Origin: a virus
Lineage: Duplodnaviria; Caudoviricetes
DNA length: 26,741 bases
Direction: 5' to 3' (one strand)
IMG/VR virus record: IMGVR_UViG_3300043388_000009
Location: 1-26,741 of that record
Positions 23,742 through 25,920 of the stretch are shown piece by piece. The first letter of the stretch is position 1. Every line of letters starts with the position of its first letter. A model generated the notes under the pieces. It worked only from the letters and a program-made list of their open reading frames with translations, had not been told where the DNA came from and made no database searches. Made by a program: the position numbers and the translations under genes.

Positions 23742-24440
23742 TCAAGTAGTGGACTGCGCCTTGATCTTGCCGGTCTGCGGGTCGATCTCGTTGCCGTCGT
23801 TGTCGTAGACCTTGCCCATGGCATTGACGTGCATGCCCCGCATGCCGCCCATGGTCTGAGCGGCACCGCTGCGGTAGGCCGTGGTGTTGGCCGAGAGCAC
23901 CGAGTAGGTGCTGTCGTGAGTGGCGGCGTTGTTGGCGACGGTCGAGACCGTGTTCTGGATGCCGAGAGCGTCGCCCTGCTTGAAGGTGTCGAGGCCCATG
24001 CCGAGGAAGATGAACTGCCAGGCGTAGGTGTCGGTCTGCTCCTTGATCAAGTCCCGCACACCCTCCCAGGTGAACTCCCGGCTGGCGTTCTCCAAGCCGT
24101 CCGTCTGGATGACGAAGATCACCTTGGCGGGACGATCGGCCTCGGGCATGGCGTCGAGGCGCTTGCCGGTCTGGATGATGGTCCAGCCGATGGCGTCGAG
24201 CAGCGGCGTCATCCCCCTGGGGTCGAGCATGTACTCGGAGGCGTCCTGGATGGCGCCGTCGTAGACCACCCGGTGCGGCGCCTCGGTGTCGAAGTCGATG
24301 AAGAACAAGGTGCACTCGCCGGGCTGGTTCTTCTGGTCCACGATGAAGTGGTTGATGGCGTTCTCGGCTTCCTTGGCGACGGAAGCCATGGACCCCGAGC
24401 GGTCCATGACGATGCTGATGTGGGTGAGTGTGTCCTTCAT
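23742..24440 (-). CDS. von Willebrand factor A (vWA) domain protein
   Basis: MIDAS DRSGSM, GMTPLLDAIG, IQTDGLENAS, WQFIFLG; SD AGGAG. Confidence 0.9.
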   Translation of the reverse strand: MKDTLTHISIVMDRSGSMASVAKEAENAINHFIVDQKNQPGECTLFFIDFDTEAPHRVVYDGAIQDASEYMLDPRGMTPLLDAIGWTIIQTGKRLDAMPEADRPAKVIFVIQTDGLENASREFTWEGVRDLIKEQTDTYAWQFIFLGMGLDTFKQGDALGIQNTVSTVANNAATHDSTYSVLSANTTAYRSGAAQTMGGMRGMHVNAMGKVYDNDGNEIDPQTGKIKAQSTT

Positions 24441-25164: not shown

Positions 25165-25200
25165 ACTCTAGCACACGTCCCCACATCTGCCTGCTACAGT
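25165..25200. promoter_or_regulatory. Back-to-back divergent extended -10 promoters
   Basis: Minus strand: TGTG-C-TAGAGT (box 25170-25165), 7 nt before ATG 25157. Plus strand: TG-C-TACAGT (box 25195-25200), facing the structured non-coding region. Confidence 0.6.
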
Positions 25201-25439
25201 AGGCCCGCTCGCTCAGCAGTGGTCCTCTGATGCACACTGCCATGGTCGCTGCGAAGCGGGCTAGAACTCACCCAGGCGCAGGGAAAGGTCACTTATCCCC
25301 GCACTAAGGCGAACAGGCCCGGAACCTCTCGGGGGACCGGAACCACTCGACCGAATGACCGGCTGTGGCCAGGCGGTCAGCCTGGGTGGGTTCTCCGAAA
25401 CCCCCTTGTGTTCCTAGCAACGACTCGGTACCTTTGACT

Positions 25440-25504
25440 GAGAGCCGCACGGTTGGGTGGAGGGGCTTCGGCCCCTGCGGGTTCGACTCCCGAGGCTCTT
25501 CTCA
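25440..25504 (+). ncRNA. tRNA-like element lacking an anticodon loop
   Basis: Acceptor GAGAGCC/GGCTCTT; D-like arm CAC-GGTTGG-GTG; AGGGGC-TTCG-GCCCCT in the anticodon position; T-arm CGGG-TTCGACT-CCCG. Confidence 0.65.
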
Positions 25505-25771
25505 GGACGACGACAGAAGGACACCCCCACCACATGGCATTCCACTCGCCATATCTCACAAACAGTTTGCGGTCTGCGGACCGTTGACTTCTCGGCCGGT
25601 CGATCGGGCGATGCCCTGGCGCTAGCCGGGCTACCCCTATCCGACCGACCTACCAAGGCCCCTGGCTGGTGAGTTAGCCTCCCCACCAACGTGGTCGTAG
25701 TGGCATCGCCTACCCAGGGGACCCTCTCAGTGTCCTACACTGGCAGCCGCCTCACAAGGGCGTGTTGAGTC

Positions 25772-25805
25772 CGTAGAAGGCCTCCCTTCGGGGGGGCCTT
25801 CTGCG
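25772..25805 (+). terminator. Strong hairpin, likely terminator (possibly bidirectional)
   Basis: CGTAGAAGGCCTCCC-TTCG-GGGGGGCCTTCTGCG, 15 bp with 2 G-U pairs. Confidence 0.75.
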
Positions 25806-25818
25806 TTACTGTGAGCCG

Positions 25819-25920
25819 ATGCTTGCAGCACTCTTGGCAGACGGTCTCTACATCGGTGGCGGCGTCCTCGTCCTCATCCTCATCATTCTGCTGGTCCTGA
25901 TCCTGCTGCGCCGGGCCTAG
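25819..25920 (+). CDS. 33-aa single-TM membrane peptide
   Basis: MLAALLADGLYIGGGVLVLILIILLVLILLRRA*; ATG 6 nt after TACTGT; GC3-rich codons; its TAG overlaps the helicase TAG. Confidence 0.7.
   Translation: MLAALLADGLYIGGGVLVLILIILLVLILLRRA

Follow-up and report, generated by a model that had tools for sequence, protein, structure and literature searches.

Plant mitochondrial t-elements are described as setting mRNA ends through RNase P and RNase Z (PMC1920247), and the same two enzymes cut mascRNA from the MALAT1 transcript, in an account that also covers phage RNAs cut by RNase P (PMC4919922). In Mycobacterium smegmatis, the RNA YrlA is reported to have a 7-bp acceptor stem, to be cut by RNase P and to receive CCA (PMC4201824). 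Fremin et al. (2023; PMC10690425) give five tRNA-like candidates, all overlapping ARAGORN calls; the alignment archives of that study may hold elements of the kind described below. We found no description of mascRNA-shaped elements in phages in the full-text literature, which did not cover most subscription papers.

Here we report a non-decoding, mascRNA-shaped RNA element in an uncultured soil phage, known from a virus record of 26,741 nt, which is estimated to be about 23% complete and was analysed over its whole length (hereafter the window). From the precedents of YrlA, the t-elements and mascRNA, we infer that the element marks a cut in a phage transcript, and we give about an even chance to the reading that it is an RNase P/RNase Z processing mark, that is, a phage t-element, within a longer phage RNA.

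Genes in the window include tail genes and those for an endolysin, RecA, a family A polymerase and a helicase. The best cultured matches of the helicase are in Streptomyces phages (about 40% identity), which suggests an actinobacterial host. Actinobacteria possess RNase P, RNase Z and a CCA-adding enzyme. At least half of the window's sampled words were present in eleven soil runs (24 runs in all, none of them listed as an RNA run). The element occupies a slot flanked by two minus-strand genes, that of the helicase and a conserved one of 160 aa. Across 24 helicase loci (two duplicates left out), this slot was short or held other genes in 22, and a T-loop was found in it only in a near-identical copy, L005. 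None of the 21 non-identical helicase relatives examined has the tRNA-like element, including L008 and L028, both of which share the RNA upstream of it. Two near-complete genomes related to the window's phage have no match to the element. Searches with T-loop words detected none in five partial close relatives; in five others they gave eight matches, confined to two of the five, three being ARAGORN tRNAs and none having the element's shape. Elsewhere in the window, a standalone protein encoded at 23742-24440 on the minus strand falls in PHROG 7371, with no Pfam match and no TROVE domain; by eye, a DxSxS motif near its start suggests a VWA domain.

Table 1. Coordinates of the element, its surroundings and the four elements of phage G007 (window positions unless a locus is named).
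Feature	Position	Strand	Remarks
Extended -10 promoter-like site	25192..25200	+	Predicted start near 25207; sole TGnTAnnnT on the window's + strand
Module A, upstream structured RNA	25259..25394	+	Long closing helix, internal hairpins, kissing loops; common to L008/L020 and L028
Decayed acceptor/T minihelix counterpart	25409..25436	+	By eye; 25421, 25423 and 25424 differ, breaking two T-stem pairs and the first loop U
67-nt indel	25437..25503	+	Carried by the window, L001, L002 and X18; missing in contigs of X22, X24 and X12
tRNA-like element	25440..25501	+	From sequence, descriptor and shuffles; top window match of two models built without it, same boundaries, weak scores
SD-like site and 17-codon ORF	25516..25587	+	SD 25516-21; ATG 25534
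Hairpin-rich downstream stretch	25590..25763	+	Kept in strains with and without the cassette
Long GC-rich hairpin	25772..25805	+	Likely terminator of the + strand transcript
G007 elements	L638, L643, L646 and L649, each 1490-1542	minus	T-loop word

The element is 62 nt long and has no codon-reading loop. Its acceptor stem (25440-25446 with 25494-25500) is paired at all seven positions, with one G·U at 1:72, and its D-like arm (25447-60) consists of a 3-bp stem (25448-50/25457-59) and a 6-nt loop with GG at its end; the 7-bp acceptor and the GG of the D-like loop had been proposed in the initial annotation of this DNA. The T arm (25477-25493) has the canonical loop named there, UUCGACU, and a stem of four pairs plus a G·A at 49:65. 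Position 8 is a G and not U8, and 3-70 is G-C. The discriminator is C25501 (C73), followed by UCA, and CCA is absent. A G stands at +1 and a U at -1 of the element; RNase P cleavage sites prefer G at +1 and U at -1.

Between the D-like arm and the T arm is a stem of 6 bp (25461-66/25471-76) with a UUCG loop. This 4-nt loop in place of a 7-nt anticodon loop leaves the element incapable of decoding, as had been proposed. The stem directly abuts the T stem, with no variable loop or linker, and it can therefore be read either as an anticodon arm, in the manner of mascRNA, or as the variable arm of a class II tRNA. The statement that the anticodon arm has been replaced by a UUCG stem is ambiguous: of 120 sequences that fit a UUCG-plus-T-arm pattern, 33 overlap genes called by ARAGORN, and 29 of these 33 are tRNA-Leu variable arms.

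Standard searches do not call a tRNA gene here. The element has the 7-bp acceptor and a TTCRANY T-loop, but no 7-nt anticodon loop on a 5-bp stem, and it lacks U8, a 5-bp T stem and a variable region (G8, G49·A65, no linker). ARAGORN called no gene at the element, where a pseudo or undetermined call had been expected, and there was no match to RF00005; relaxed ARAGORN (-ps80) gave noise everywhere and was not used. Rfam gave no match at E up to 1 in the whole window. A narrow Rfam scan aligned the element to tRNA-Sec at 21.4 bits (E 0.12, threshold 47), with the UUCG stem as variable arm. An extended acceptor, 25438-43 with 25500-05, was rejected, being broken by the changes in run X18 described below.

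A cloverleaf descriptor, written after the element had been seen, matched the window once and 10 of 1,500 dinucleotide-shuffled windows, a single one of which had a 7/7 acceptor. Folded in isolation, the cloverleaf has -30.9 kcal/mol against a minimum free energy of -31.2 kcal/mol, and the stability of the stretch is not unusual (z -1.30). In local context, ViennaRNA assigns the acceptor a probability of about 0.02 or less and prefers other folds, forcing the acceptor costing 2.7-4.2 kcal/mol. This preference weighs little, because the same is true of 29 of 120 real tRNA genes, whose in-context probability is likewise under 0.05; among those with at least 58% GC it is four of six. The z-score and the post hoc descriptor would allow a chance fold of GC-rich intergenic DNA, a reading that is barely credible given the small number of matching shuffles and a natural indel that coincides with the ends of the fold. 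The element is confirmed as a real tRNA-like feature.

Judging from sequence signals, the element is probably part of one phage transcript of about 600 nt that runs from the promoter-like site to the long GC-rich hairpin (Table 1). Similar promoter-like sites are found in the same slot of L006, L008 and L028. In the hairpin, the X18 change G25794A turns U·G into U-A; behind it, at 25818-25919 on the + strand, is a small hydrophobic ORF of about 33 aa, in a stretch that is matched by many unrelated contigs. Module A, the structured RNA upstream of the element, is about 140 nt long with a closing helix of 13-15 bp, 13/13 pairs of which form in all three phages. Its kissing loops are complementary with different letters in each phage, at 6/6, 6/6 and, by script, 5/6 in L028, where 6/6 are paired by eye if the next GTGG is used. 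The L008 and L028 copies are located just downstream of the helicase gene. Downstream of module A are a terminator-like hairpin in L008 and the helicase stop in L028, and the tRNA-like element in neither. Module A has no Rfam match, and pattern scans for it identified no new family member, three of the eight viral loci being chance coding matches. A metagenome scan (59 of 64 parts) recovered a copy of L008 as the only member among the best-paired 45 of 119 loci, the 120 loci from a loose scan were tested by the cloverleaf descriptor only, and the L028 copy had no match in the phage collection.

The predicted fold of a 641-nt region is more stable than that of each of its 20 shuffled versions (z -4.35), and within the region 25400-25410 can pair with 25753-25763, spanning the element. 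Both findings would fit an optional subdomain of one long unprocessed non-coding RNA, with the T-loop used for tertiary docking, and a preprint on GOLLD RNA mentions tRNAs that sometimes sit in the linker of that RNA. Module A, however, stands alone in L008 and L028, the window has no Rfam match to GOLLD, ROOL or manA, and searches found no distant homolog of the downstream part, so that we regard a single long RNA as very improbable. BLASTN of a 771-nt region and the element against 50,697 phage records gave short, chance-level matches only; a match in Stella was rejected as a plain long hairpin.

The element is followed by an SD-like site and an ORF of 17 codons whose coding status is doubtful: three of five listed strain changes, read by hand, alter an amino acid. 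An uncut 5' leader structure could account for this arrangement; its role would be to make the downstream message more stable or to govern translation from the SD that follows. SD and ATG follow the element in the window as they do in two phages discussed below, G006 and G007 (4/4 copies in the latter), and the D-like strand can pair with the spacer ahead of ATG 25534 in a competing fold. A plain hairpin would suffice for such a role, yet the T-loop and the 12-bp geometry are kept. In X18, moreover, the spacer pairing is lost, its C-rich partner being changed at 25525 and 25531 with the D-like strand unchanged among the differences listed. Together with the amino-acid changes in the ORF, these points make an uncut leader rather unlikely.

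Comparison of strains, which covered 4 of the 24 runs, revealed that the element is optional and dispensable, which the initial annotation had not foreseen. The 67-nt indel (Table 1) consists of the element plus 3 and 2 flanking bases, its ends match those of the fold to within 3 nt, and both neighbours are kept. Contigs from X22 and X24 join 25396 to 25504 via 32 letters that are a diverged copy of 25405-25436. In X12, loose ends agree with this cassette-free join, and another contig is identical to the window across the element. The comparison is unrooted and fits a gain in one line as well as a loss in the other. A second indel between strains, of 8 nt at 25397-25404, gives rise to a weak terminator-like hairpin (25388-25403) that only the window has.

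In the cassette-free strains, the flanks (their own letters plus 25504-25509) would form, as read by eye, a 7-bp stem joined by a 3-nt linker to one of 5 bp, which closes a 7-nt loop. This minihelix is paired at 7/7 and 5/5 positions and starts with U, and its loop begins UUCG and has G at 58. By a descriptor written after the fact, such a minihelix is expected about 2e-5 times per 40 nt of shuffled window sequence. The cassette-free contigs have a depth of 4-9 and are described here from the differences listed; a further 47 lie beyond these, and changes at 25504-25509 are possible. The window itself has a decayed counterpart of the minihelix just upstream of the cassette. As one allele carries the mascRNA-shaped element and the other the predicted minihelix, both offer the top half of a tRNA at one place, and this is the best local argument for a processing mark.

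Run X18 contributes one contig of 7,964 nt with 43 differences from the window over 1,301 nt. In the acceptor, G25440A keeps pair 1 and A25441C breaks pair 2, with no partner change among the differences listed (about 5 of the 43 lie beyond them). The D, UUCG and T arms are unchanged among the same differences, which is non-significant at this divergence. The broken pair and the clean loss in close strains are what one might expect if a class II tRNA gene (Leu, Ser or Tyr) had lost its anticodon arm and its function, leaving a remnant in which the former variable arm survives as the UUCG stem. The tRNA-Leu pattern matches and the tRNA-Sec alignment point the same way, tRNA genes are present in related phages, and the indel can be placed so as to end at position 76. 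On the other hand, no parent tRNA was found by tRNA match and 20-nt word searches, all stems are still paired, the cassette-free allele shows an intact minihelix, and the same reduced shape is under selection in G007. We therefore hold a mere remnant to be rather unlikely, and note that a tRNA origin and a present function are mutually compatible. A tRNA remnant at an attP site was also considered and rejected. The 5' acceptor strand is present and there is no integrase among the window's 35 ORFs scanned; the best tRNA match covers 33 nt at 85% (E 7), and a 20-nt T-arm/acceptor word occurs in five loci, with no ARAGORN tRNA among the three that are non-self.

Elements of the same shape were detected between genes in other phages. 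When 1.36 Mb of fetched loci were scanned with the descriptor, 21 distinct matches were returned, 6 of which overlap ARAGORN tRNAs. A T-arm scan (33 of 64 parts) returned 95 distinct matches, comprising 35 tRNAs, 7 tmRNA-like ends and 53 others, and the descriptor fits 14 of the 53, where shuffling of the upstream 50 nt predicts 1.25. One of these 14 is the window's copy, and six are variants from a single Bifidobacterium phage group (host named through L496); with the remaining seven this makes eight independent cases besides the window. One of the seven parses better as acceptor, D and T only. A GTDB scan gave 15 loci, which were 13 tmRNA-like 3' ends (by eye) and two elements known from the other scans.

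The elements of phage G007 are a stronger example of the class than that of the window. Four T-loop word matches (0 control matches) correspond to four copies of 53 nt, each with a 6-bp acceptor, a 2-bp D stem round YGG, a 5-bp stem capped by a tetraloop of variable sequence, and a T arm. Pairing is complete (72 of 72 cells), and 8 of 18 pairs are changed on both sides, across all four helices. This compensatory count, which describes four related sequences and is not a probability, was reached by 2 of 500 shuffles, and slid structures gave 0-1. Covariation was counted within G007 only, MAFFT having failed to align unrelated elements by structure. The copies are placed one per gene boundary, all four with SD and ATG behind them, and three of the four begin just after a stop. 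In phage G006, two such elements were found at successive gene boundaries. Models built from other phages ranked 25440-25501 first in the window, at 18.9 bits (E 0.004) and 17.9 bits (E 0.046), scores that are no better than those of bare T-arm matches or of the next background match; the class evidence thus reaches the window by analogy only. We regard the elements of other phages as look-alikes, with a shape in common and homology not demonstrated.

Several other tRNA-like forms were noted during these scans. In a Bifidobacterium phage operon (L287, 997-1244, minus strand; also L496 and L514), a mascRNA-shaped element is followed by a manA-like RNA (31.7 bits, E 1.3e-6, below threshold) and then by tRNA genes. 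The cultured Mycobacterium phage Oaker has a perfect 12-bp acceptor/T minihelix directly behind a stop codon (L633, 1201-1232, gp52-gp53), which other H-type phages match, and a second T arm at L633 1-20. In Mycobacterium phage Chaser (L634, 1150-1290), an unannotated YrlA-like RNA, with no Rfam call, is located downstream of a Ro-like gene. Near 1180-1250, L308 encodes a tmRNA-like tRNA domain with G3·U70 and A73, a short hairpin replacing the coding loop, and SD and ATG downstream. Reduced tRNA forms consisting of acceptor, D and T only lie between phage genes in L281, L516 and L610, another reduced form lies between phage genes in L279, and L285 has 14 copies of tRNA-like genes with a hairpin at the anticodon-loop position.

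If the element is a processing mark, transcription would proceed from the promoter-like site to the long GC-rich hairpin, the acceptor would stack on the T arm, and the GG of the D-loop would dock on the T-loop. The 5' cut would then be made by host RNase P, ahead of G25440, and the 3' cut, behind C25501, by RNase Z or a 3' trimming pathway. The upstream kissing-loop RNA would gain a free 3' end, a role that falls to a terminator-like hairpin in L008. The 62-nt RNA would be released and could be given CCA, and the downstream part would gain a new 5' end about 32 nt before ATG 25534. Cassette-free strains would use the simpler minihelix at the same place. The layout supports this scheme, as SD and ATG lie close behind the element, as in G007 and G006, and the changes that X18 has in the C-rich partner of the competing fold speak for it too. 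The processing signal suggested in the initial annotation agrees with where the element lies and with how elements of its shape behave in other phages, the cleavage itself being a prediction. The best arguments against a processing mark are the dispensability of the element and the broken pair 2 in X18, to which G49·A65, the missing U8 and CCA, and the in-context folds can be added, as well as the initial U, the G at 58 and the shallow contigs of the minihelix, and the weak model scores.

The initial annotation had proposed, as an alternative role, a decoy for tRNA-targeting toxins. Anticodon nucleases need an anticodon loop; the element has none, so it would be no decoy for them, and the proposal is weak in that respect. 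The released small RNA could instead be the functional product, a stable tRNA mimic occupying enzymes or defence proteins that read the elbow or the acceptor end. The compact, stable fold with its UUCG cap would suit such a product, as would the precise cassette behaviour, which befits an accessory gene; mascRNA is bound by tRNA enzymes, and tRNA tails are described as a substrate cut by Cas12a3 (PMC12851939). We nevertheless think a functional product unlikely, because the copies in G007 and G006 stand one per gene boundary and are not arrayed, and the element has no promoter-like site of its own.

Returning to the processing mark, we tentatively extend it, with less confidence than the reading of the locus itself, to the proposal that tRNA mimics of the mascRNA and minihelix shapes are in wide use among phages, as cassettes that can be exchanged and that recruit host RNase P and RNase Z to split early transcripts; this locus would then show one cassette replacing another in one population. 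Such wide use would be the bacterial-virus counterpart of mitochondrial tRNA punctuation and of MALAT1 processing. If the element is cut as predicted, RNA processing in phages would include a layer that has escaped annotation, being overlooked by standard tRNA and Rfam scans, and bacterial viruses would have come by the mascRNA fold independently. If it is not cut, it is still a tRNA-derived fold that moves as a clean cassette.

Compared with known systems, the element resembles the tRNA-like domain of tmRNA in that an anticodon is absent and a short stem-loop lies immediately 5' of the T arm. tmRNA requires G3·U70, A73 and CCA. The element has G3-C70, C73 and UCA, there is no coding region between its D and T parts but a 16-nt hairpin where the tag frame would be expected, and ARAGORN finds no tmRNA; the likeness to tmRNA that had been drawn at the outset is therefore not supported. 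YrlA, which is described in actinobacteria and their phages as an RNA that mimics tRNA and has D and T loops (PMC4201824), is similar in these respects, but the copy beside the Ro gene in phage Chaser has, by eye, the T arm first and a loop-closed acceptor, whereas the order in the element is acceptor, D, stem and T. No Ro60, TROVE or Rsr match was found among the 35 ORFs scanned of this approximately 23% complete record. The C4 antisense RNA of phages P1/P7, as cited in PMC4919922, is likewise of phage origin, and host RNase P releases it from an early transcript. The window has no Rfam match to it, and the complementarity noticed by eye is partial and GC-rich.

The closest likenesses are to t-elements and mascRNA. 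Plant mitochondrial t-elements are described as non-canonical cloverleaves with a GGTTCRANYCC motif beside transcript boundaries (Forner et al., 2007, PMC1920247), and the element carries this T-arm motif at 25480-25490 in a non-canonical cloverleaf. In the same account the ends of t-elements are mapped to mRNA termini, whereas the element is known from sequence alone and would depend on bacterial host enzymes. With mascRNA and menRNA (RF01684; MALAT1 3' end) it shares the reduced cloverleaf, about 60 nt long, with a 7-bp acceptor, a 3-bp D stem with a GG loop, and a 6-bp middle stem abutting the T stem (Rfam consensus; probe sequences in 10.64898/2026.01.19.700226), as well as a location 3' of a structured RNA. 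The architectural likeness to mascRNA noted initially is thus borne out by the geometry. The element did not match RF01684 at E up to 10, leaving the gathering threshold unreached; mascRNA is mammalian and not from phage, the element has G49·A65, and no homology is implied. Cleavage by RNase P and RNase Z is shown for mascRNA and predicted from sequence for the element. We place the element outside tRNA, tmRNA, YrlA and RF01684 and suggest, by analogy, that it would work most like a t-element or mascRNA.
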